Below are positions 7,665-50,290 of a stretch of 64,000 bases of DNA, piece by piece. The position numbers and the translations under genes are program-made. The first letter of the stretch is position 1, and the number at the start of each line of letters is the position of its first letter. Source of the stretch: a virus (lineage: Duplodnaviria > Caudoviricetes); the IMG/VR virus record IMGVR_UViG_3300010149_000008. One strand, written 5' to 3'. The notes under the pieces were generated by a model. The model was not told where the DNA came from. It saw nothing but the letters and a program-made list of their open reading frames with translations, and did no database searches.

Positions 7665-8213
7665 TTAATAAGTATACTCAAGCAATCCTTCAAGCTTTAG
7701 AAATTTCTCCCATTCTTTAAGCTCGAGCTCAGTACAGCTTGAAAGCTTAGCCTCTTTTATTATCTCATTTGTTTGTCTAACAATTTCTTCAGCTTCTCCA
7801 TTATTAATTGTACTGTTTTTTGTTTTTCTTCTTTTAGGCAAAGGCTTTTCTTGCTTTTTCTTTCTATCTTCTGGATTGATTTCTAACTGCATCTTTACTG
7901 GTGTATTTCCAAGCAAAGGTAAATCCTTGACTTGATTATCATTTATAATTAATACACAGTCTGGGTGATCAATTTTTGAACCTCTTTTCCTTACTTCGAA
8001 AATAACTTGAGGATTATCTTCGCTTCCTGTAGGTTTTGAAAATCTTATCCAGGCAAAACCTTCTCTTTCAACATGCCTTACATACTCAATACCATCAGGA
8101 GAATTTGCAATTGTCATTACTTTATTATACACATTAGAATCATTAGGTACCTTTACCCAACAATTACCTCTGCCTTTATATCGATCTCTTATTGTATTTT
8201 TAAAATTTGACAT
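7665..8213 (-). CDS. Hypothetical protein, GRG/AWIR paralogue family copy 2
   Basis: YKGRGNCW, GFAWIRF, FEVRKRGSKIDHP, LGNTPVKMQLE. Confidence 0.75.
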   Translation of the reverse strand: MSNFKNTIRDRYKGRGNCWVKVPNDSNVYNKVMTIANSPDGIEYVRHVEREGFAWIRFSKPTGSEDNPQVIFEVRKRGSKIDHPDCVLIINDNQVKDLPLLGNTPVKMQLEINPEDRKKKQEKPLPKRRKTKNSTINNGEAEEIVRQTNEIIKEAKLSSCTELELKEWEKFLKLEGLLEYTY

Positions 8214-8288
8214 ATTAAAGTTACCTTTTTAAGTTTTGTTGATGTTGTTTTGTATATTATAAATTAAAGTTTATCTAATATACACGCA

Positions 8289-11206: not shown

Positions 11207-11803
11207 TTAGCCCCAAGCACTTCCTTGTTTGTTTTTAAATGACTTTTTACTTTTTGAAGTAGCTGAATTACGTACGTCAGGCCATAAATAATATACTGTA
11301 TAACCATGTTCAGACTTATATACAGCTTTTTGTTTTCTACCGTTAATATCAATTTCTCCATAGTAATATTTTTGCGGGTCTCCTTGATAAGGTCCAGCTG
11401 GCCATGGTACGTCGAAGCTTCCATCATTACTGACACCTATGCCATTATTTATTCCAGCTTCGTATATTAAATCGTCTTCTGTCATTACAATATCACCAAC
11501 ATCAACATCACTGGGGAAGCCAGACATACCTTTGATATGCTTTGTTAGACTTTCAATTTCAATTTGATAACCATATTCTTCATTAATCATTTCTTCATCA
11601 CCATGCTGATCAAACCTGTCGTAGCAATAAAAAATATCTTTACCATGAATATCTTCTAACTCTTTCAACAAATCTTTTGCTTTTTTTGTAGGATTGTGTC
11701 TAGTTCTTGTTATAGATCCTCCTTGAGATTCGTTAACTTTACTTTTAAATTCGAACTTTCGCCATTCTTTTAAGATTTTTTTTGTCTCATTAGTTTTTTT
11801 CAT
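11207..11803 (-). CDS. Putative internal head protein with ILKEW leader and C-terminal FKNKQGSAWG tag
   Basis: N-term TKKILKEWRKF...VNES; C-term ...GSAWG-stop; upstream ATATTTATTATAGAAAG. Confidence 0.7.
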   Translation of the reverse strand: MKKTNETKKILKEWRKFEFKSKVNESQGGSITRTRHNPTKKAKDLLKELEDIHGKDIFYCYDRFDQHGDEEMINEEYGYQIEIESLTKHIKGMSGFPSDVDVGDIVMTEDDLIYEAGINNGIGVSNDGSFDVPWPAGPYQGDPQKYYYGEIDINGRKQKAVYKSEHGYTVYYLWPDVRNSATSKSKKSFKNKQGSAWG

Positions 11804-12699: not shown

Positions 12700-13443
12700 A
12701 TGAGAAAAGTCATTCAGACAAAAGAAGTTTTAAAAGAATGGAATTCTTTTTTAATAAAAGAATCAAATGCTGATAGAGTAAAAAGGATGATTGATGATCT
12801 AGAAAGCTTTGGAAAACAAATTCATATTACAGAGCCAAGTAAAAGCGTTATTGTAATTACTTATGGAAAAAATTACACTAGCGGTAATCGAGATGCATCA
12901 AAAAACTTATTTGGACAGATACGCTGTTCAGACACTTCAGCGTCATATGATGATAAACAAAAAGGCATTGGAGCAGGAGAAACAAACTCTTGTTGGGAAG
13001 TTGATTTAACTAGTCACACTACTAAGGGAATGGGTCCTTTGCTTTATGAAGTGCTTATTGAATATATTAGCAATATAAAAAGAGCTTCGCTTAAACCAGA
13101 TGCATCCTCAGTTTCTGATTTAGCAAAAAATGTGTGGAATAAGTTTAACGATAGACCGCAGAACGATGTTAAAAAAATTCAGTTAGATGTTGGTGAAAAA
13201 ACTGTATATAGATTTAAGAGATACAAAAACCAAGATGTTAAACAACTAACACCTGACAATGTTGAAGATGATACGATGCAGGATTCATCAATAAGAGACA
13301 AAGGTTTTGATGCTTGGGAAGAAAGTGCTTTAAGTAAAGCCTATAAAAAACTAGATATGCCGATTATAGATGAACTTAAAGCTAGAAATCTAATTATAAT
13401 GCCTAAAACATTTAAAAGCAAACTAGGCAGTGCATGGGGTTAA
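12700..13443 (+). CDS. GNAT-like putative internal head protein, paralogue 1, with C-terminal FKSKLGSAWG tag
   Basis: VLKEWNSFLIKES leader; KGMGPLLYEVLIEY (GNAT motif-A-like); QLD...LTP...DD shared with 45610 and 46323. Confidence 0.7.
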   Translation: MRKVIQTKEVLKEWNSFLIKESNADRVKRMIDDLESFGKQIHITEPSKSVIVITYGKNYTSGNRDASKNLFGQIRCSDTSASYDDKQKGIGAGETNSCWEVDLTSHTTKGMGPLLYEVLIEYISNIKRASLKPDASSVSDLAKNVWNKFNDRPQNDVKKIQLDVGEKTVYRFKRYKNQDVKQLTPDNVEDDTMQDSSIRDKGFDAWEESALSKAYKKLDMPIIDELKARNLIIMPKTFKSKLGSAWG

Positions 13444-19476: not shown

Positions 19477-19881
19477 CTAATTTACACGCTTTGTAAAATC
19501 TTTTTCATATTCTTTATCAACTGAAATGTATAAAACTCTATGATCTATAAATTCTTTGAATTCTTTAAACACATAGTCTCCTTTGTAATCTTTTACTATA
19601 GAAGAAATATATCTTTGACATACAATTTTTTTTCTTTTAATTTCTAAGTTTAGCAAACAACTGTCTTTGTCAAAGCATCTAGCTACAAGATAAGATTTTA
19701 ACTCATGCAAGTTTTTGTTTACTTCTACAACTGTAGAACTTTTATTTTTATATCTTGTTACTTCGTCACATGTTACTTCTTTATATCCACTTTCTTTTAA
19801 GTAAATTATGTCCAAGACTTTTTCGTTATCACAAGAAAAAAGCAAAGATAAAGAAAAAATTAACAATAGCACTTTACTCAT
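19477..19881 (-). CDS. Putative lipoprotein
   Basis: MSKVLLLIFSLSLLFSC lipobox-like. Confidence 0.6.
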   Translation of the reverse strand: MSKVLLLIFSLSLLFSCDNEKVLDIIYLKESGYKEVTCDEVTRYKNKSSTVVEVNKNLHELKSYLVARCFDKDSCLLNLEIKRKKIVCQRYISSIVKDYKGDYVFKEFKEFIDHRVLYISVDKEYEKDFTKRVN

Positions 19882-22621: not shown

Positions 22622-22909
22622 CTAGTCTACAACATAAATAATATCACAATCGCTAGATAGCGTTGCAGGTGTTACGTCACCTTTTTTTGCATGAATATAG
22701 TCAGGAGCTTCAACAACCTTCCACTTTGCGTAATAACCATCACTATTTTTTTCATTACTCACTTTTCCTGTTGATATACCATGAAAAGTTATTTTGCCTC
22801 CACTTCTACATATAATCTCAGCACGTTGGCCAAACGTTGTATACTTACTCCATTCAGCATCTGTACAAGAGAAAAATAAAGCTGTAATTAAAATTAAGTA
22901 TTTCTTCAT
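22622..22909 (-). CDS. Putative lipoprotein
   Basis: MKKYLILITALFFSC lipobox-like. Confidence 0.65.
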   Translation of the reverse strand: MKKYLILITALFFSCTDAEWSKYTTFGQRAEIICRSGGKITFHGISTGKVSNEKNSDGYYAKWKVVEAPDYIHAKKGDVTPATLSSDCDIIYVVD

Positions 22910-29978: not shown

Positions 29979-30293
29979 TTAATTAACTTCTTTAATCTTG
30001 CCTTCTATATTAACTCTTAACTTGTCGTTAGTATAACATCCCATGCTGTTCTCATGATAAATACCTTCTAAATCTCTAAATCTATATACACCACTTCTTG
30101 ATCCATAACTATTTCTCCAAGACTTACTACTAACTACATGTCTCATAACATGTCCTAAAGGATGCTTGCAAAAGATTACATAGTTAATAAACTCTTCTTC
30201 TTCCACTTCTTCAACATTAGAATCAGAATGATTGCATGCAGCTGTAAATAATAACATCAAAATAATAAAAACCTTACTCATCAAATACTCCAA
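29979..30293 (-). CDS. Putative lipoprotein
   Basis: MSKVFIILMLLFTAAC lipobox-like. Confidence 0.6.
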   Translation of the reverse strand: MEYLMSKVFIILMLLFTAACNHSDSNVEEVEEEEFINYVIFCKHPLGHVMRHVVSSKSWRNSYGSRSGVYRFRDLEGIYHENSMGCYTNDKLRVNIEGKIKEVN

Positions 30294-39800: not shown

Positions 39801-39996
39801 GACTTTTCGAAAAAGTTTTAGGGTACACACTTGACCACACCATCTGAATATTTTGTGTATACGATTAAGTTGTGTAATACTATCAATGAGCGTTTGCGGC
39901 ACTTATTTGGAATAGTAATTTTTCAGTTTTGTGCAAAAAACTTCGGGAGAAATTTCCGAAAACTTTTACATTTTTATTGATAAATAAATTTAACTA

Positions 39997-40013
39997 ATAT
40001 TTATTATAGAAAG
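39997..40013 (+). promoter_or_regulatory. Candidate late promoter element
   Basis: ATATTTATTATAGAAAG, identical to 11821-11837 (minus). Confidence 0.55.
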
Positions 40014-40017
40014 AGTT

Positions 40018-40341
40018 TTGAATATGAGAATAACCGAGAGAAGATTGAGAAGACTGATAAGAAGTGTAATCAAAGAAACTGTTAGCGATTATCGTTTAAG
40101 CGTTGATTTTAGTCAAAAAGTTGAAAGTATGATTGACGAAGTTAAACCAGGGTTTATTAAAAATTGTCGAATGTTAAGAATTTTTGATGAAAGTGACTTA
40201 GATGATTATAAAGTTAGCGATTTTTTAAGAAAGTATTTAGGTGAGGTTATTCATCTTATGGGAGAAGAAACAGCCAAGAGGCGATTTGCCGGCAACTATC
40301 ATAGTGTTACTCAAGATTTTAAAAGATACTTGGGAATGTAA
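40018..40341 (+). CDS. Putative internal head protein
   Basis: MRITERRLRRLIRSVIKE leader; upstream ATATTTATTATAGAAAG. Confidence 0.65.
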   Translation: MNMRITERRLRRLIRSVIKETVSDYRLSVDFSQKVESMIDEVKPGFIKNCRMLRIFDESDLDDYKVSDFLRKYLGEVIHLMGEETAKRRFAGNYHSVTQDFKRYLGM

Positions 40342-40483
40342 AAGATCTTTGTGTGAGATCGAGAGAATATTTTTATCTCGAGCTGGGTGTCGCCTGTGTC
40401 ACGACGTTTATGTGCGTTTTGTGTTTTTTATTTTTTTTATGAAATATATAGTATGTGTATAAAAGAATGAATAGAGAAAAAAC

Positions 40484-41323
40484 ATGTTATTAAAAGAATA
40501 CGTTTCGTTTTACATAAAAGAAGCTATTTCACATAAAAAGATAAGTTTAGTTGTAAATGAGTTGAATAAAATAACTATGAATTATAGAGCTAGTAGTAGT
40601 AGCTATTCATTGTATTATGACTTAGTTAAAGTTGTTGACAAGTTTGGATTAAAAAAGCTAGGAGCAGGTGTTTCTAGAAAAGCATATTCTTTAGAAAACG
40701 AAGACTGGGTTTTAAAGTTTGCATATGGACATAATGACGTTGATTACTTAGACGCTTTAGACACAAACGCTGAAGAGGTAGAAATTAGTCAAGGGTTTCA
40801 TGGAATGGGATCTCGAGACATGTTTGTTAAAGTTTATGACTGGGATAAGTTGAGCGAGAAGCCTGCTTGGATAATTGCTCAAAAAGTAATAACATTGTCA
40901 GAAGCTTGGCGTACAATGACTTTTTTAGATCTGCAAAAAATATTTCCTACTTTTTGGAATGCTTTGTACAAAGATGCAAAAGAAAAGACATCAAAAAACT
41001 TTTTTTGTGATTTTGTTGCGGATACTATGTTTGAAATTAGTATTGAGTCTTCACTTCGTGGAAAAAATTCAAGTGGTTTAAAAGAAGAAGGTTTTTACAT
41101 AGCTATGAAAGAAGCTGCGATAAGCGAACTGAGTTTAATGCCTATTGAAGCCATCAGGTTTGACTTAGACTTTCTTAGAATTGCTCGAGCATGTGCATAC
41201 AGTAGACCTGATGATATGCACAGTGGCAATATAGGGATAATTCCTTCACGTGATGTTAGCCCAAAAGATATAGTTATATTAGATTATATGTTAGACTTTG
41301 GTTCAGATACTTATACAGTATAA
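40484..41323 (+). CDS. Protein-kinase-like fold protein, paralogue 1
   Basis: LGAGVSRKAY Gly loop, WVLK Lys, EEVE, DMHSGN catalytic loop, VILDY. Confidence 0.75.
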   Translation: MLLKEYVSFYIKEAISHKKISLVVNELNKITMNYRASSSSYSLYYDLVKVVDKFGLKKLGAGVSRKAYSLENEDWVLKFAYGHNDVDYLDALDTNAEEVEISQGFHGMGSRDMFVKVYDWDKLSEKPAWIIAQKVITLSEAWRTMTFLDLQKIFPTFWNALYKDAKEKTSKNFFCDFVADTMFEISIESSLRGKNSSGLKEEGFYIAMKEAAISELSLMPIEAIRFDLDFLRIARACAYSRPDDMHSGNIGIIPSRDVSPKDIVILDYMLDFGSDTYTV

Positions 41324-41379
41324 TTACTTATAATATTATATTATAAAATTTTAATAGACAGAAATAGGGAAAATAAAAA

Positions 41380-41973
41380 ATGGACAACAAAGAATTTAAA
41401 TTGTTAATTGAAGGTTTTGACAAGTTTTTGTTAAGTGAGCATATAGGTCATACAGCACAGCGTACAAAATTATTCGATGAAATTCCGAGTGAGTTTAAGC
41501 CTTATATAAATGACACAATGAGCTGGTATAATGGTGATGCATGGATGGCTGAAACTGATCATGATAGTTTAGACGAAGAAGAAGATGAAAAATTGCTTTT
41601 TGAAGAAGTAGCAAAAGCATGTGGCTGTAGTGTCAAAGATTTGCTAGTTCATTTTGTTGACAACTTTACTTACGAAATTGACTATGGTTCTTCAGCAGGT
41701 AGTGTTAACTCGCAAGACTTTTTAAACTCTTATAGATCAAATGGAACTTTATGTGGATCTTTTGAAATTGATGGAGTTTCTTTGAAAGGGTTTTATTTTA
41801 TGCTTGGAACAGATGAAACACAATTTGGAATACAATTTGATGGTGCTATGAGTAGTAGAAATTTAAAAGGACTGATTTTTGTTGCACCATCATGTTCAGG
41901 TTTAAGTTCACAACAAAAAAGTGTAGAGCCTAAAAAGCAATTTAAGTCTAGCCTAGGTGGAGCTTGGGGTTAA
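41380..41973 (+). CDS. Putative internal head protein with C-terminal FKSSLGGAWG tag
   Basis: FKLLIEGFDKFLLSE leader; ...GGAWG-stop. Confidence 0.7.
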   Translation: MDNKEFKLLIEGFDKFLLSEHIGHTAQRTKLFDEIPSEFKPYINDTMSWYNGDAWMAETDHDSLDEEEDEKLLFEEVAKACGCSVKDLLVHFVDNFTYEIDYGSSAGSVNSQDFLNSYRSNGTLCGSFEIDGVSLKGFYFMLGTDETQFGIQFDGAMSSRNLKGLIFVAPSCSGLSSQQKSVEPKKQFKSSLGGAWG

Positions 41974-42004
41974 TATATAATAATAGTAAAGGTGAACTTT
42001 TATT

Positions 42005-42817
42005 ATGATTTTAGAGAAATATGTTAAAAATTATTTAATAGAAAATCTTAAAATTGATGATATTTCTATAATTGACAGTGTTATTGAAAGATTAAATGAC
42101 GCCGGAAAAGTTCTTCTGGATGATTTATATTCTCAAGGTGATGAAAAGTACTATCATCATTACGCTTTCGAAGTTTTTGATAATGTTGCTTATTCAAATA
42201 GCCCTAAGCTTGAGGAATTAGGGAAAGGTGCTTTTCGAAGAGTATATTCAATACCAGGTGAAGAATGGGCATTGAAATTATCGTATAATACTGAAGCTGC
42301 AAAGATAAACAAGGAAGAAGTAAATATTAGTCAAGGAAAGCATGGTTTGGCAGCAAGAGATATTTTTATAAAAGTATACGACTATGATAAGTTGACTGAG
42401 TATCCTTGCTGGATTATATGCCAAAAAGTATTTCCGATGGAAGACATTGCTGATTTAAATATTTTAAAAAAAGTTTTTCCTACATTTTGGAACATGATCA
42501 AAGAAGGTGACATACACAAGACAGCGGGTCATCATTTTATCAGTATGATTAGTTCAGCATTAACTATGTTTGGTTATTATTTAAGCAAAAACAATCGAGA
42601 AACAAAAAAAGCTTTTTTCCAAGCAGTTGAAGATCTATGTGAAACATATGATTTCAATGATATTGTTTTCTATGATGACTTTAAAAGAATAAGTTCAGCG
42701 TACAATTATATCAGTACTACAGACATGCATGAAGGAAATTTTGGTTTAGTAAGTTTAATTAATCCAAGCCCAGAGTCTTTTGTTATTATAGACTTTGATG
42801 TAGATTCTCATGTTTGA
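42005..42817 (+). CDS. Protein-kinase-like fold protein, paralogue 2
   Basis: LGKGAFRRVY, WALK, EEVN, DMHEGN, VIIDFD. Confidence 0.78.
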   Translation: MILEKYVKNYLIENLKIDDISIIDSVIERLNDAGKVLLDDLYSQGDEKYYHHYAFEVFDNVAYSNSPKLEELGKGAFRRVYSIPGEEWALKLSYNTEAAKINKEEVNISQGKHGLAARDIFIKVYDYDKLTEYPCWIICQKVFPMEDIADLNILKKVFPTFWNMIKEGDIHKTAGHHFISMISSALTMFGYYLSKNNRETKKAFFQAVEDLCETYDFNDIVFYDDFKRISSAYNYISTTDMHEGNFGLVSLINPSPESFVIIDFDVDSHV

Positions 42818-42973
42818 TATTTCTGCTATTTAACTTTTCAATAGTTTTGTAGATATTTTCTATTTCACTTTCAGAAAAAGTTTTTCTATTAATTGCTTCT
42901 TGTAAAGTTCTAATTAAAATATTTATGCACGTTAATTCTGTTTGTGTAATTTCATATTTCATTATAACTTACC

Positions 42974-43783
42974 TTACCAGATGACTGCTATTCCAGTTTT
43001 AAAAATAATATCTGATTTTTTTATTTTTACTGCAGGTTCTGAGTCATGTAAATAAGCAAACGATGTATTTATTCCAAGCTTAAACAATTTTGATTTTAGT
43101 ATAGATGATCTTAGATTGACTTCGTTATTAACTCTATAGTCTTTATAATTTAACAATAACGGTTGATAATAAGATGTAATAGAGATAAAACTGCTGTTAT
43201 CATTTACAAAGCTTTTTATTATTGTCATGTATGAAGTAATTCTAGCATTCATTGTAGTTTCATAAGAAATTTGTTCATAATCTGACATTATACCTGTACC
43301 AAATGCAAATTTAAAAATTTTTGTTTTTGTAATTACTTTTTCAATTCTTATTCCAACGCCATTTAACTGACGCAAACTTAAGTCTTTAAACTCATCATAT
43401 TGAGTTTGAGTAAATATTTCATACCCTATGAAATTGTGAAGCATAATAGTATATCTAAAGTGAGAAAAAGCATTGTTTCTGTACAATATTTTGTCTTGAT
43501 ATCCTTTGCTAACTGAACTTTTTAATAAAATATGATGTTTATTATATTTATAGTGAAGATCTTTTTTTAATTCATAAGCCTGCGAATTAACGTTTCCTTT
43601 TTGTAGTTGAATTCCACAGTTTAAAGATCCATAAAAACCTTCTTTCTTTGCTTCTTCTCTAAAGCTTTCTATATTTACTTGAGAAAAAGAATTGTTTAAA
43701 TTAAACAAACAAACAAACATAATTGCTAAAAATTTTGTTTTCAAATTATTGTCTCCTTTAACTAAAAAGTATTTTATAAGCAT
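42974..43783 (-). CDS. Outer-membrane beta-barrel protein, DUF481-like
   Basis: Signal peptide then QVNIESFR, KGNV, HFRY, FTQTQYDEFKDLSLRQLNGVGIR, YYQP, DYRV; aromatic C-terminus (W). Confidence 0.72.
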   Translation of the reverse strand: MLIKYFLVKGDNNLKTKFLAIMFVCLFNLNNSFSQVNIESFREEAKKEGFYGSLNCGIQLQKGNVNSQAYELKKDLHYKYNKHHILLKSSVSKGYQDKILYRNNAFSHFRYTIMLHNFIGYEIFTQTQYDEFKDLSLRQLNGVGIRIEKVITKTKIFKFAFGTGIMSDYEQISYETTMNARITSYMTIIKSFVNDNSSFISITSYYQPLLLNYKDYRVNNEVNLRSSILKSKLFKLGINTSFAYLHDSEPAVKIKKSDIIFKTGIAVIW

Positions 43784-45203
43784 TTTTTAAAGAGTACACA
43801 TTTTCTTTTAAACTATTTTTTGCTCTTTCGTAAGCTTGATTTAGCAATGTTGTATTTTTTTCTGCTCTTCTATTTGAAGATTGTTGTTTATGATAGTCGG
43901 GAGATCTGTCTTTAATTTCTTCATACATGTTTTTTAAAGCTTCAATTTCTTTTTGACTATCATCGCTTTTAATTGATTCTATATACTCTTCAACAAAACC
44001 ATTAAAACTAGGGAATTCTTTTTCTAAAAAATACATTCCTACGTTATAAGACATGTCAATAACTACATCTTGTACTTCATCGTCCATTTTAAACAAATAA
44101 CCGTCTGATAGACCTTTATGATAATCTATTGAATTACTAATATATCCTTCCAAGCACCTTTCAGCAAGTTTTAATGATATTAATCCTCTAGACTCAGCTA
44201 CTTCTTTTTCTAAGTCTAATTCTGACTTTTGATCTTCTAAAGAAGCTTTTCTTTTATCTAGTCTTTTAATTTCTGTCTCAACTGTTTCAGTATAATTTTT
44301 TCTTTTCTTTGCATCTCTTATCTTTTTCCATTTTTTCAGTTCAGCATTCTTTAACTTAATTTTACTTTCAACTTTAGAAATTATTTTATCAAGATTTGCT
44401 TTTTTACTTTCAATAGACTTGCTGAATTTAGCTAATAATTCTTTTTGACTTTCTTGTTCATACTGACTTTTTTCTTCTTCAGATATACCACATTTTGCGT
44501 ACAAATCATCAATCCATGCTTCAGGCAAACTATCAGGGCCTATATTGTCAGCAAAAAAAGTGCCGTATCCTATTGAAACACCAGTTCTATCTTTGTAAGG
44601 GTACGGCTTGAATCCTTCAAATACTTTTATTCTACTTTTAGCTCTTTCTAATAACTTTGTTTTGTTACTTGAAGCAACAGGAACAGACTTTTCTTTTGGC
44701 TTGACTTTAGCTTTCAATGTTGTATTGATATCTTTATTGTCGTCTACTACTATATTTGCTGATGTGTTATATTGAGCTAGAGGTTGTTTCACAATTTGAT
44801 TGCTTGTTTTTTCTATTACTTCTTGTACTTCAACATTATTATCATTAGCAATTTTCTGTAAAGCTTTAAGCTCTTCGGCTGAATTGTCTCCTCCAAAAAA
44901 AATTGCAGCTGCAATCGCTGATATTTTTAAGCCTTTTTTAAGACCTTTTAGTAGTTTATTCATTTTAGGTTTTATTATTGAAGCTTTTTCTAAGTCAACT
45001 TTATTTACTATTGTTTCTGGTTGATCTGTTATTATTGGATTATCAACAACAGTATCATTAAAGTCTAGCGCGCTAATGTCTAACGCAGTGTGCTCTCCTG
45101 CCTGATTCTGTTTAAAACTTTCGTTCAATCTTATACTAGATATTTCTTTAAAAAAATGCTTAAGTAAATAATGATTCTGTTTATTTTCAGCAATTATAAT
45201 CAT
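43758..45203 (-). CDS. Large virion-type protein with T4-like (GH24) lysozyme domain
   Basis: IKVFEGFKPYPYKDRTGVSIGYG (E-x8-D), VIDMSYNVG, S.YHKQ...RA; coiled-coil insert; RLNES leader. Confidence 0.72.
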   Translation of the reverse strand: MIIIAENKQNHYLLKHFFKEISSIRLNESFKQNQAGEHTALDISALDFNDTVVDNPIITDQPETIVNKVDLEKASIIKPKMNKLLKGLKKGLKISAIAAAIFFGGDNSAEELKALQKIANDNNVEVQEVIEKTSNQIVKQPLAQYNTSANIVVDDNKDINTTLKAKVKPKEKSVPVASSNKTKLLERAKSRIKVFEGFKPYPYKDRTGVSIGYGTFFADNIGPDSLPEAWIDDLYAKCGISEEEKSQYEQESQKELLAKFSKSIESKKANLDKIISKVESKIKLKNAELKKWKKIRDAKKRKNYTETVETEIKRLDKRKASLEDQKSELDLEKEVAESRGLISLKLAERCLEGYISNSIDYHKGLSDGYLFKMDDEVQDVVIDMSYNVGMYFLEKEFPSFNGFVEEYIESIKSDDSQKEIEALKNMYEEIKDRSPDYHKQQSSNRRAEKNTTLLNQAYERAKNSLKENVYSLKNAYKILFS

Positions 45204-45279
45204 GTTTAAATGTACCTTTTTGTATTTTTATCATAAGATAAATATGAAATATATTGATTAATTTTAAGAAAGTATAACA

Positions 45280-45573
45280 ATGAAAAGTGATGATTTATAT
45301 ATCATACAATCAGACGTAACAGGAATGATTAAAGTTGGTAGGTCAAAAAACCCTGACAAACGTTTAAAGCAGCTACAAACTGGCAATCCAAACAAGCTTA
45401 GACTTATTGCTTTTTTTAAAGGCGAAGGGTGGAAAGAAAAACTAATTCATGAAGAACTTAAACGTTGGAGAAAAGAAGGTGAGTGGTTTAGCTATGATTG
45501 TGTAGGTAGTATACCCGTAAGTCTTTATGAAAAAATTGATTTTGGTTCATTTGATGATTGGTGGGATAAGTAG
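45280..45573 (+). CDS. GIY-YIG nuclease, T5orf172/MUG113-like
   Basis: LYII...IKVGRSKNPDKRLKQLQTGNP...EKLIH...EGEWF. Confidence 0.85.
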   Translation: MKSDDLYIIQSDVTGMIKVGRSKNPDKRLKQLQTGNPNKLRLIAFFKGEGWKEKLIHEELKRWRKEGEWFSYDCVGSIPVSLYEKIDFGSFDDWWDK

Positions 45574-45609
45574 TTTTATAAAAATAAAATCTATATAAAA
45601 GGAGTTTAA

Positions 45610-46311
45610 ATGAATAAAAATAATAATAAAGAAATTTTTAAAGAATGGGTTTACTTTATTAGAAATACAAATTCCAACATTTTAAAAGAAAGTCTAAACA
45701 TAGAAAATCAAATTGAAAAAGCAAAAAAAAAGATATGCGAAGTAGAAAACCAAAAGTTAAGTATAAGAATAACTAAAGAAGTAAACGAATTCGTATTAAT
45801 TTCTGAAATTGTTGATTCACAAAACACTAGCTTTATTATTGACGATGTAGCTTATATTAGCTTTAAAAAATTTAAATATAGTAATGTTATTGATGAAGAA
45901 AGCAACATTAGAAATTGTTATGTAATTGATTTTACAGAGTTTGTAAAGTATGATTTAGGCCCATTGATGTACGATATCATGATAGAATATGTCTCAAAAG
46001 ATAATTCTGTTTTATGTCCAGATAGATTTGAGATATCTAATGAAGCCAAATCTTTATGGGAAAATTATTTTTACGAAAGAAATGATATAAAAACTGTGCA
46101 GCTAGATATTGAAAATGATTCTTTGGATAATAAAAAATTTCCTAACTTAACTCCGCAGTTAGAGGATGACTTTTATCAGAATGTTTCTATATCACATAAA
46201 GGAACTAGTTGGTATGAAAGCCCGTTTTCAAAAGGATATTATAAAAACAATGCATATGTTATTGAAAAGTTATCATATGATCCATTGTTTATATTAAAAG
46301 GAATTTTATAA
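45610..46311 (+). CDS. GNAT-like putative internal head protein, paralogue 2
   Basis: IFKEW...ILKES leader; LGPLMYDIMIEY, PDR..IS..A..LW, QLD, LTP. Confidence 0.7.
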   Translation: MNKNNNKEIFKEWVYFIRNTNSNILKESLNIENQIEKAKKKICEVENQKLSIRITKEVNEFVLISEIVDSQNTSFIIDDVAYISFKKFKYSNVIDEESNIRNCYVIDFTEFVKYDLGPLMYDIMIEYVSKDNSVLCPDRFEISNEAKSLWENYFYERNDIKTVQLDIENDSLDNKKFPNLTPQLEDDFYQNVSISHKGTSWYESPFSKGYYKNNAYVIEKLSYDPLFILKGIL

Positions 46312-46322
46312 AAGGAAAATAT

Positions 46323-47258
46323 ATGTTAATAAATAGAAAAGAATATAAAAAAATAGTCAAAGAATGGAATAGGTTTAATTCAATTCAAGAAGCATTTAAT
46401 CTTGTAAAAAAGCCTGATCATGTTGATGAAGATGACTGGAAGTTTGATTTTGGTTACGAAGATGAGACTGAAGATAATTACAATCAAGTTTCTTCTAAAA
46501 GTAAAGAATTCTACAATGAATTTGATCCTATTAAAGATAAAGCTAAAATAGAAAAATTTAATTCTAATAACGCTACATACGGTGTTAACTCCAAAATATT
46601 TAGTATAATTAATAAACTTGAGAACTACGTTCAGCAAGAAAGAGAATTAAAAAATGACAACAGCATTGTTGGTAAAATTTTACTTTATGAAGACGAGTAT
46701 GAAGGTTTTGTAAAGTTTGATTTTTCTAATTTTACATCTGCTTGGCCTAACAGCAACAGTCCTGTTTCTAGTACGATTGACTTTGAGTCAACAGACAAAG
46801 ATTGGTCTCCTGGATACGGCAAAGGAGCATATAGACATATGCTTACACATAAGTCAACTATTGGAGTAAGTTCTGTACTTTTTGAAATAATGCTTGAGTT
46901 TGTTTCTGTTGTTAGAGAAAAAGGAATATGCTCTGATCGTTATTCTTCAACTGTTGAGGCACAAAAAAAATGGCAAATATATGCTAATAGAAGTGACGTA
47001 GAAACAGAACAGCTTGACATTAACAAAGACGACTCAGAAAAACATAAATTACCACAACTTACACCAGATGACCCTACAGACGATGCAGCGCAGGGACTTG
47101 CAATAAAACATAAAGGAAACGAGTGGTATAATTCAATTTTTTCTAAAATAATAAAAAAGAAAGATATGAATACAATTAAATACATATGTAATCATTCAAA
47201 TCATTTAGACCTAATAATATCAATAACAAATGAAAGCCAGTTTACTTCAAAAATATAA
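46323..47258 (+). CDS. GNAT-like putative internal head protein, paralogue 3
   Basis: IVKEWNRF..IQEA leader; VSSVLFEIMLEF, SDR, QLD, LTP, DD. Confidence 0.7.
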   Translation: MLINRKEYKKIVKEWNRFNSIQEAFNLVKKPDHVDEDDWKFDFGYEDETEDNYNQVSSKSKEFYNEFDPIKDKAKIEKFNSNNATYGVNSKIFSIINKLENYVQQERELKNDNSIVGKILLYEDEYEGFVKFDFSNFTSAWPNSNSPVSSTIDFESTDKDWSPGYGKGAYRHMLTHKSTIGVSSVLFEIMLEFVSVVREKGICSDRYSSTVEAQKKWQIYANRSDVETEQLDINKDDSEKHKLPQLTPDDPTDDAAQGLAIKHKGNEWYNSIFSKIIKKKDMNTIKYICNHSNHLDLIISITNESQFTSKI

Positions 47259-47782: not shown

Positions 47783-48667
47783 TTATAGCACTTCGTTTAA
47801 AACGTTTTGTATAAATTTAATAGCAGGATGTAGCCATCCTAAAAAATACTTAAAGTCTATACCGGTAATGTCAAATATCAGACGGTTTAAACTATCTTTC
47901 ATAGATATATAAAAGACAAAGTAAACTATTATTAAAGCCTCAAAAAAAGCTATTCTGTAAACTAACCACCAAAATATTTCAGACATTTTTTTATGTTTTA
48001 ATCTAGTTTTTATTTTTTTATGTCCACCTATTCTTTTTGCTTTTTCGCTATCTTTAGGCGGCTGCAATTGCATTTCTATTAGGCCGATTGCATATAAAGA
48101 TTCAGGATCACGCACACCTTTAAACTTGTACAATCCTACTAAAGCAATTAACGCATTATCAGGTATATACCTGTTTCTATGCCCGAGTTCTTTGTACGTC
48201 TTATATGCTGAAGCGGAAAGCAGTATTTGCTCAGCAGCACATAAAGACATTGTTCTTGCAGCAATATTTTTACCTATGCCTTCAAGATTAATTCTTTTTC
48301 CGCCAGCTCTTACTATATGTTCTTCAGCTTTGACAATTAACATTTTATCCCAATGTATACCAACTCTACTTCTAAAAGGAAACTTTTTAATTCTTAAAAA
48401 TTTTTTATAATCAAAAGCAAAGGCTATAGCGTCTCCAACAGATCCAAAATACATTAAATGACCATCAGATGCGTCGACTAGACGACCGTTGTGTCTTTGT
48501 ATGAAATTCATGACTGCTTTGTCGTGTACACCAAACCATTGAGCTGCAATTCTAGAGCCATTTCTCTGCACAAATTTTGTACTACCTATTATATCTGTTA
48601 GAACAATTGCAATTTTAGCTTCTATAATATTTTCAGGAAGGCTGCTACTCATTTTTGTCACATACAC
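47783..48667 (-). CDS. Class III nucleotidyl (adenylate/guanylate-type) cyclase with C-terminal TM
   Basis: IVLTDIIGST, VDASDG, RVGIHW, EGIGKNIAARTMSL, EQILLS. Confidence 0.85.
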   Translation of the reverse strand: MYVTKMSSSLPENIIEAKIAIVLTDIIGSTKFVQRNGSRIAAQWFGVHDKAVMNFIQRHNGRLVDASDGHLMYFGSVGDAIAFAFDYKKFLRIKKFPFRSRVGIHWDKMLIVKAEEHIVRAGGKRINLEGIGKNIAARTMSLCAAEQILLSASAYKTYKELGHRNRYIPDNALIALVGLYKFKGVRDPESLYAIGLIEMQLQPPKDSEKAKRIGGHKKIKTRLKHKKMSEIFWWLVYRIAFFEALIIVYFVFYISMKDSLNRLIFDITGIDFKYFLGWLHPAIKFIQNVLNEVL

Positions 48668-48893: not shown

Positions 48894-49151
48894 CTAACTT
48901 TTTTTCTTAGGCTTCTTACTTAAGAAAAGATGACTTCTAGGTATTTTATTAGGAGGTCCTGAATGGTTTAAAATATTACTAATGTCTTCAATTGATCTTA
49001 TTTTGTCTTTTTCAGATGAAATTTCTTTGGTTTTTAAGTTTTTTCTTTTTATTGTATGTTCATCTTCTATAGACTTCAATAAGTCAGAAAAGCTCTGACT
49101 TTGATTTGCAAAAGAAGATTCGAGAAATATTTTTATATACTTTTTAAGCAT
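48894..49151 (-). CDS. Hypothetical protein with IFLES-type leader
   Basis: GGAG RBS; MLKKYIKIFLES. Confidence 0.6.
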   Translation of the reverse strand: MLKKYIKIFLESSFANQSQSFSDLLKSIEDEHTIKRKNLKTKEISSEKDKIRSIEDISNILNHSGPPNKIPRSHLFLSKKPKKKS

Positions 49152-50014: not shown

Positions 50015-50290
50015 CTAAAGTTTAAGACGGTTGCGAATTATATCTTTTTGTCGATAAAACATCTCATGATATTTTTGCATCATATCTTTAAAAATATCTT
50101 CTATTGTTTTATCGAAATTTTTATCAATATCACTTAGACGCATACTGCTAGTATGTTTAGAAACATATTTTTCTATTTCTTTTTTTAGTTCGTTTCTTTG
50201 ATATTTTTCTATTTCTTTTTTGACAATAGACTTGATTTTTGAAATTTCTGTCTTGTTAAACTTTTCTTTTAATAATTTTTTATTGCTCAT
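50015..50290 (-). CDS. Hypothetical helical protein with LLKE leader
   Basis: MSNKKLLKE...IVKKEI. Confidence 0.6.
   Translation of the reverse strand: MSNKKLLKEKFNKTEISKIKSIVKKEIEKYQRNELKKEIEKYVSKHTSSMRLSDIDKNFDKTIEDIFKDMMQKYHEMFYRQKDIIRNRLKL

Follow-up and report, generated by a model that had tools for sequence, protein, structure and literature searches.

In bacteriophage T4, the internal proteins (IPs) are made with N-terminal propeptides of 10–19 residues, the capsid-targeting sequences (CTSs), which have affinity for the prohead core; a CTS functions also on foreign proteins, and further proteins with CTS-like sequences are present in T4 relatives (PMC9026906, PMC5694885). The protease gp21 cleaves after L/I-X-E, and Alt is processed at both termini (PMC9026906). 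In the database the relevant N-termini read MKTYQEFIAE/A for IPII and IPIII, MAKINELLRE/S for gp24 and MLKEQLIAE/A for gp22 (here and below, a slash follows the Glu of the site). In the jumbo phages phiKZ, 201phi2-1 and SPN3US, many head-internal proteins are likewise cut after Glu by a gp21-related protease, and their propeptides are mostly longer than 100 residues with the motif A/S/G-x-E. The SPN3US paralogs gp53 and gp54 have identical N-termini and diverged bodies (PMC5694885). The present analysis concerns a 64,000-nucleotide stretch of DNA from an uncultured tailed phage (IMG/VR record IMGVR_UViG_3300010149_000008; Duplodnaviria; Caudoviricetes), referred to as the window, and in particular a gene cluster at positions 40,018–47,258. 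A first-pass annotation had reported N-terminal (L/I/F/V)-K-E leaders in eleven window genes, seven of them in the cluster and four elsewhere (11207, 12700, 48894 and 50015; genes are named by their lower window coordinate), and had proposed that the corresponding enzymes are packaged in the phage head, matured by proteolysis and injected into the host. As set out below, most of these proteins do begin with one of three kinds of short leader, and these leaders may well act as capsid-targeting propeptides.

Every leader peptide quoted in that annotation was found at its open reading frame (ORF). For the first gene, ATG 40024 (MRITE...) is a better start than the TTG at 40018 chosen earlier, because all relatives begin M-R-I-T-E. 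The motif itself did not serve as a diagnostic sign: [LI]-x-E is present in 57/123 N-termini, at 0.016 per residue as compared with 0.013 in protein bodies, and [LIFV]KE is enriched only about 2-fold at N-termini. The motif as first written, whether (L/I/F/V)-K-E or L/I-x-E, was therefore discarded as uninformative, the N-terminal rate of [LI]-x-E being the same as that of protein bodies. The eleven genes are also not independent of each other, as family A (12700, 45610, 46323) and family B (40484, 42005) each consist of paralogs that match over their full length.

Leaders were instead defined by comparing 225 ORFs with each other over their first 30 residues. The ORFs came from the window and from its best available relative, G001 (an IMG/VR contig of 153 kb, estimated to be 61% complete), and pairs with homologous bodies were excluded. 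At scores of at least 45, this comparison gave 19 N-terminal pairs, whereas internal segments gave 0 and shuffled N-termini 0; at scores of at least 40, there were 31 pairs versus 3 in the control. Three types of leader were distinguished. Type 1, MRITE+KLR+ΦIRxΦΦxE followed by S, is found on 40024 of the window and on six G001 genes. Type 2, ΦΦxEW+xFΦxE followed by S and with the Trp always at residue 12–16, is found on 11207, 12700, 45610 and 46323 and, as a variant, on 41380. Type 3, MLL+EYxxxΦΦxE followed by A, is found on the two members of family B. When profiles of the leaders were searched against six-frame translations, type-1 members scored 27–45 bits with noise of at most 6.3 bits, type-2 members scored 17–27 bits with noise of at most 8.8 bits, and matches were to N-termini only. 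Graded by leader profiles and orthologs, eight of the eleven genes are robust leader carriers (40024, 40484, 41380, 42005, 45610, 46323, 11207 and 12700). The assignment is marginal for 43758 and 48894, and 50015 is not a carrier. These results establish three genuine leader families, which are confined to N-termini, are modular and show conservation of the protein sequence. Two likenesses were considered and not borne out: that of the type-2 leader to the N-terminus of T4 gp23 (ELLNKWKPLLEG) and to the N-termini of the G001 capsid protein and protease, which had been seen by eye, was at noise level in the profile search and stays an unsupported lead, and the type-3 profile against the T4 IP genes was at noise level too.

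The modularity of the leaders became evident on other contigs. A scan of 2.9 million viral contigs in IMG/VR with the first nine type-1 residues as query returned 16 loci on 15 contigs, and at all 16 loci the match begins at Met1 and extends to the Φ-x-E at residue 18, with nothing in common beyond. Within 3 kb on either side of these type-1 seeds, further type-1 genes and six type-2 leaders were present, although type 2 had not been used in selecting the loci, and tandem arrays of leader genes were found at L012, L013, L015, L018, L019, L021 and L023. In total, 54 leader ORFs were collected from about 300 kb (window, G001 and flanks on the related contigs), and the 51 that have bodies fall into 41 unrelated families; G001 possesses at least 15 leader carriers in its 153 kb. 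The same behavior is displayed by individual genes. The protein encoded by 40024 scores 43 bits to the type-1 profile and resembles G151772 in residues 1–19 alone (84% identity), the match of 41380 to G151137 is confined to residues 1–17 (53% identity), and 11207 has only residues 1–20 and the last 12 residues in common with 12700, its body being unrelated to family A. The last 12–13 residues of 41380 match those of 11207 and 12700, so that an FKxxLGxAWG tail is common to the three proteins. Conversely, the family A body bears a type 1 leader in G001 and a type 2 leader elsewhere.

The conservation of the leaders stops at a defined position. In type 1, positional entropy climbs from 0.28 at E18 to 2.1 at position 19 and to more than 3 from position 20 onward, and at a fixed distance from Met1 the site reads I/L at P3 in 35/38 cases, E at P1 in 33/38 and S, N, T or A at P1' in 29/38. 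The leaders thus end at a fixed I/L-x-E/S site, a putative cleavage site that fits the published gp21 rule L/I-X-E. Comparison of leader codons gave 76 synonymous, 97 identical and 112 non-synonymous pairs, and because so many synonymous differences stand beside amino-acid conservation, selection acts on the leader at the protein level. Type-2 and type-3 leaders are kept in 24–27 marine orthologs with only 43–60% overall identity: the 27 marine homologs of 12700 (family A) retain ΦLKEWNxFLΦ(K/N)E, and in the 24 marine homologs of 40484 (family B) the leader residues M1, L3, Y6 and E13 are invariant.

The window is one end of a metagenomic contig of 256,231 bp (ENA ERZ27249212, k141_115948). 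It has a G+C content of 29%, five tRNA genes and many small genes, and among its products are a PhoH-PIN protein, a superfamily 2 (SF2) helicase, a Nudix protein and the product of a collagen-repeat fibre gene. No catalogued phage matches the window at the DNA level, the cluster is likewise without similarity to known phages, and a tblastn search with the 40024 protein against 50,697 phage records returned nothing relevant. Window positions 40–57 kb are syntenic with G001 positions 132–150 kb. The head module of G001 is arranged in T4 style and encodes a portal protein, a protease of the Peptidase_S77 (gp21-type) family (73363–73965; 101 bits), several small unannotated proteins, an acidic protein of 491 amino acids (aa) that occupies the scaffold position, and a capsid protein with homology to T4 gp23 (E = 1e-30). 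Two Φ-x-E sites of the G001 capsid protein, at residues 50 and 59, fall in the region of the T4 maturation site, but this tripeptide is too common to weigh much. The nearest cultured relatives of this capsid protein are those of Flavobacterium phage immuto, Microcystis phage Mel-JY01 and Rhodothermus phage RM378. Together with the lipoprotein-type signal peptides described below, the nearest cultured relatives point to a marine member of the Bacteroidota as the probable host. G001, G003 and G004, which comprise every leader-bearing contig of 38% completeness or more, each encode an S77 protease, and the G001 leader genes 64803 and 65072 lie among the head genes while others lie in arrays. The clade is very abundant, as the G001 protease used as query has at least 8,000 variants in metagenomes, the best 120 of which are all at least 89% identical. 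The window comes from an uncultured marine jumbo phage of an abundant lineage in which the head genes are of T4 type.

Promoter-like sequences set the cluster apart from the early genes. An early-type promoter, CGTGYAA-N16-19-TAWAAT, is present in 25 copies in the window, all on the minus strand between 4504 and 39478. None of the 25 lies in the cluster and none in the 39.5–64 kb part of the window, and in G001 the promoter is found at 678, 10484, 25509 and 152719–153086, only beyond the cluster edge. The cluster thus lies outside the early regulon. A second element, ATA[AT]ATAG, precedes 4/19 leader genes as compared with 2/141 other genes (p = 0.002), and one copy lies upstream of 11207. The same box also stands ahead of structural genes, namely one for the tube, two for the sheath, the one in the scaffold position and, in the window, the one for the fibre, its positions being 60183 (plus strand) at the collagen-fibre gene and, in G001, upstream of 45601, 46127, 50607 and 69085. 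In T4 the late box is TATAAATA, and from its sequence ATA[AT]ATAG is a candidate late promoter core resembling it. A generic scan for sigma-70 promoters and terminators gave results at chance level.

On other contigs, ATA[AT]ATAG belongs to a conserved module upstream of many type-1 genes. The module GAAAACTTTTGACAT ... GATAAATAGATTTATA is found ahead of type-1 genes not only in the window but also in G001, L013, L019, L021 and L023, and a GC-richer boundary element, TCGAGCTGGGTGTC..GTCAC, recurs after each cassette in L019 and L023. In G001, L019 and L023 the order is TCGAGCTGGGTGTC..GTCAC, GAAAACTTTTGACAT box, GATAAATAGATTTATA, ribosome-binding site and leader codons, and the repeated unit of type-1 cassettes, of about 170–200 nt, runs into the leader codons. 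At 40024 in the window, the boxes are located upstream and the boundary element downstream of the gene. Folding of the boundary element (z = 0.44) does not support an RNA hairpin or terminator. G146516 and G147318 possess an identical upstream region and start but different bodies. A 34-codon ORF of G001 (150902–151003, minus strand) encodes a type-1 leader (27.6 bits) and little else; the cassette module lies upstream of it, and it is probably a cassette remnant. In T4-type genomes, promoter-stem-loop cassettes shuffle genes in hyperplastic regions. The modules described here resemble them in being repeated intergenic elements beside unrelated small genes that could drive recombination, and differ from them in that the repeat enters the coding sequence and encodes a conserved peptide and in that the box is late-like rather than early. 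This layout fits an exchange of cargo by recombination at the module, which would explain how the leaders spread and not what they do.

Regarding what they do, it is our moderately confident view that the leaders are capsid-targeting propeptides comparable to those of T4 internal proteins, combining targeting with cleavage and here expanded into exchangeable cassettes. The analogy with T4 drawn by the first-pass annotation is upheld in this respect by the modularity of the leaders, the gp21-type site, the protease in relatives, the lack of early promoters in the cluster and the late-like box that some members have in common with structural genes. The cluster at 40–47 kb together with 11207 and 12700 would then be a variable cargo array in which each protein starts with one short amphipathic leader. 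The leader would dock the protein onto the assembling prohead core, and the gp21-type (S77) prohead protease would subsequently remove it after I/L-x-Glu, as in T4 IPI–III and Alt. Once matured, the cargo would remain inside the head along with the DNA and would probably enter the cell at infection. The boundary element, the promoter-like module and the leader codons could let recombination swap cargo bodies. That the cargo is injected and has a role in the host is held with less assurance, as possible but short of probable, because this is a further step of reasoning from T4 Alt and IPI. Somewhat more tentative still is the suggestion that the clade loads dozens of rapidly exchanged enzymes by means of a cassette-borne address code made up of three leaders and some C-terminal tails, the cargo delivered with the DNA comprising enzymes of kinase-like, GNAT-like and HAD type along with many proteins whose fold is unknown.

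The comparison with the T4 system shows likenesses in several respects. In both, short N-terminal leaders (18–27 residues here, 10–19 in T4) are carried by unrelated proteins and end in I/L-x-Glu followed by a small residue, in a lineage equipped with an S77 protease of gp21 type and a capsid protein of gp23 type. In both, the carrier genes reside in variable loci and vary from one related phage to the next, enzymes such as Alt are found among the carriers, and some of those described here have a conserved C-terminal end, Alt being cut at both termini. In contrast to T4, there are three leader classes instead of one and a far larger repertoire with tandem arrays. Relative to the T4 system of CTSs and internal proteins, what is best called new is the set of three leader classes, the large tandem arrays, the enzyme cargo and the promoter-plus-leader cassette. 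As compared with the phiKZ type, the leaders are short and end in I/L-x-E, and the capsid protein of the lineage is T4-like and not phiKZ-like.

Several observations weigh against the propeptide reading. The system is known from the gene sequences of uncultured phages, and the protease and capsid genes are those of relatives. The nearest cultured phage, immuto, lacks these leaders, having given no type-1 or type-2 match in a first-look search that may miss short motifs. There is no detectable similarity to MKTYQEFIAE or other T4 propeptides: type-2 and type-3 profiles searched against 54 kb of T4 that include ipI–III, genes 21–24 and alt reached at best 5.6 bits, which is noise, a leader search of the whole T4 genome found nothing, and capsid and protease N-termini were also at noise level. 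Because no sequence similarity of leaders to CTSs is detectable, the link to T4 is an analogy, and the cut-site rule behind it has only three residues and is often satisfied by chance. Most cargo bodies are acidic (median isoelectric point 5.2), and they reach about 430 aa, whereas T4 IPs are small and basic. The late-like box accompanies a minority of the leader genes, 11207 stands in early-block orientation, and the conservation of type 1 on other contigs counts as independent evidence only from position 10 onward, as positions 1–9 were fixed by the search pattern.

Some of these observations would be expected if the leaders were uncleaved modular docking tags for another destination or partner, such as a compartment in the tail or baseplate, a complex in the membrane, a chaperone or a replication compartment built by the phage, with I/L-x-E being the end of an amphipathic helix. 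Modularity and conservation would suit any shared partner, the C-terminal tail common to three proteins suggests docking more than processing, and the lack of similarity to T4 CTSs and the acidic bodies, unlike those of the IPs, point the same way. A helix, however, needs neither a near-invariant E18 with a small residue behind it nor a conservation that stops exactly there. In addition, the lineage has a matching protease, G001 has leader genes in between its head genes, and the late-like box is common to leader and structural genes. An uncleaved docking tag is for these reasons regarded as unlikely, though it deserves to be kept in mind.

A second alternative places the function in the DNA, where a mobile promoter with ribosome-binding site and start region would have been spread by recombination and the peptide would be a mere passenger. 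The repeated intergenic module that continues into the leader codons, the pair G146516 and G147318 with their common upstream region and start, and the leader-only remnant in G001 are all as this explanation would have it. Against it, many synonymous differences are found alongside conservation of the amino acids, type-2 and type-3 leaders are conserved in orthologs that do not have the repeated DNA module, and conservation stops at a codon-exact protein position, E18-S19. As an account of the peptide it is improbable; as a mechanism of spread it is compatible with the capsid-targeting reading, since it explains how leaders move and not what their role is. Lastly, the idea that an AT-rich genome, with its abundance of K, E, I and L, produces many L/I-x-E and Φ-K-E near N-termini by chance holds for the motif as first written (57/123, the rate of the bodies), for 50015 and perhaps for 43758 and 48894, but is refuted for the eight robust members by the 19 pairs versus 0 in controls, the clean gaps in the profile scores and the recovery of the 18-residue leader on 15 other contigs, and can hardly be entertained for the leaders as a whole.

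If the leaders are indeed capsid-targeting propeptides, a simple sequence rule would read the packaged and probably injected proteins of very common ocean phages without culturing, and dozens of protein families that are now unannotated would obtain a location and a time of action. The T4 internal-protein idea, which began with three small basic proteins, would then cover large sets of enzymes that can be exchanged, and the promoter-plus-leader cassette would be a concrete mechanism for the swapping of phage cargo. Should the suggested address code exist as well, metagenomes could be read directly for injected effector sets, and a leader could tag foreign proteins for packaging. If the leaders address something else, they would still mark a shared partner worth finding.

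With respect to the cargo itself, the fold labels of the first-pass annotation fared unequally: kinase-like is reasonable, GNAT-like is consistent with the data but never significant, and the lysozyme label is weak and below the Pfam cut-off. Neither member of family B (40484, 42005) has a Pfam hit. In the 24 marine homologs, G60/G62 of the Gly loop, E98 and the catalytic residues K78, D244, N249 and D267 are invariant or nearly so, and for an AF2 model of 40484 with a predicted local distance difference test (pLDDT) score of 78 all 50 top Foldseek hits are kinase-like (E about 3e-3). The best structural match is to PRPK/Bud32 and APH(2'') (VIA Z 6.9), with a root-mean-square deviation of 4.9 over 152 residues for PRPK, and a divergent kinase-like fold is thus a reasonable assignment for the modeled protein. 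Family A (12700, 45610, 46323) also has no Pfam hit. The AF2 model of 45610 (pLDDT 69) has acetyltransferases as nearly all of its top Foldseek hits, the best with E 0.023, and the nearest clusters in the atlas to 12700 are viral, with PF00583 on 14–15% of members (score 0.95), suggesting that family A is probably GNAT acetyltransferase-like, a lead that stays below significance. In both families the modeled fold core starts past the leader, at residue 17–45 in family B and at residue 22–36 in family A. In 43758, PF00959 reaches 19.4 bits (cut-off 22.3) over residues 194–231 only, the match to a PDB lysozyme has E = 0.23, and an E..D..S pattern was seen by eye in FEGFKPYPYKDRTGVSIGYG, the catalytic pattern of GH24 being Glu-x8-Asp-x5-Thr. 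A further cargo type is encoded by G001 18103, which has a HAD-family domain behind a type-2 leader.

Table 1. Genes and DNA elements of the cluster and of the outlying loci in the window (a slash follows the Glu of the putative cleavage site)
Feature	Coordinates	Strand	Remarks
Type-1 upstream module: CGAAAACTTTTACAT box, GATAAATAA box, ribosome-binding site	39954..40023	+	
Type-1 leader gene, 105 aa	40024..40341	+	Leader residues 1-18 (40024-40077), ends IKE/T
Cassette boundary element TCGAGCTGGGTGTC..GTCAC	40378..40402	+	Once in window, 0 expected by chance
Family B, kinase-like, type-3 leader	40484..41323	+	Leader residues 1-13 (40484-40522), ends IKE/A
197-aa protein, type-2-variant leader	41380..41973	+	Leader residues 1-20, ends LSE/H; C-terminal FKxxLGxAWG tail
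Family B paralog, type-3 leader	42005..42817	+	Leader residues 1-13, ends LIE/N
DUF481 outer-membrane-type protein, signal peptide, no leader	42974..43783	-	PF04338, 57.9 bits; mid-cluster
481-aa protein, weak GH24 lysozyme-like stretch (residues 185-231), marginal leader	43758..45203	-	
Small GIY-YIG/T5orf172 (MUG113) protein, no leader	45280..45573	+	PF13455 E = 3e-11, PF10544 E = 4.5e-10
Family A (GNAT-like lead), type-2 leader	45610..46311	+	Leader residues 1-27, ends LKE/S; 21.7 bits
Family A paralog, type-2 leader	46323..47258	+	Leader residues 1-23, ends IQE/A; 24.4 bits
198-aa protein, type-2 leader and C-terminal tail	11207..11803	-	Leader residues 1-25, ends VNE/S; 21.3 bits
Family A member, type-2 leader and C-terminal tail	12700..13443	+	Leader residues 1-21, ends IKE/S
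85-aa protein, possible short type-3/T4-CTS-like N-terminus, marginal	48894..49151	-	N-terminus MLKKYIKIFLE/S
91-aa protein, not a leader carrier	50015..50290	-	Named in the first-pass annotation

Among the paralogs listed in Table 1, 42005 and 40484 of family B are 33% identical over their full length (E = 2e-44), and in family A, 45610 matches 12700 with E = 9e-25 and 46323 matches 45610 with E = 1.6e-18. The body of 40024 has no match in Pfam or PHROG, and no fold could be assigned to 40024, 41380 or 11207. The leader profiles give no hit in 43758. For 48894, the match to the type-3 profile is 9.0 bits (E = 0.12), and an ortholog was looked for in G001 and not found. The candidacy of 50015 was rejected, as its G001 ortholog matches residues 52–89 only and the N-terminus is not kept. 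The two genes without leaders inside the cluster both have orthologs in G001, with 59% identity for the DUF481 protein (42974..43783) and 75% for the GIY-YIG protein (45280..45573). The latter, standing between cargo genes, may be the remnant of a mobile endonuclease in a variable region.

Outside the cluster, a type-2-like LKEWEKFLKLE (5.5–8.8 bits) is located toward the C-terminal end (about residue 170 of 182) in an otherwise unrelated early-block protein encoded at window 7668–8228 on the minus strand. Next to the cluster, the gene at 47783–48667 (minus strand; 289–294 aa) encodes a protein that is homologous to class III nucleotidyl cyclases in its N-terminal half (PDB 1ybt, E = 5.8e-7; Ma1120 cyclase, E = 5e-6; no hit in Pfam) and has hydrophobic segments at the C-terminus; it is 42% identical to the product of G001 139852–140718. 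In G001, the portal gene (L006:14794-17940) encodes 1048 aa, and PHROG matches place an HNH-endonuclease-like stretch at residues 167–286, before the portal domain at residues 584–848; this stretch may be a fusion or an insertion. Finally, small early-block proteins encoded on the minus strand of the window at 19477–19881, 22622–22909 and 29979–30281 carry signal peptides of the lipoprotein type with ..FSC or ..AAC at their ends; signals of this style are common in Bacteroidota and give a hint on the host.

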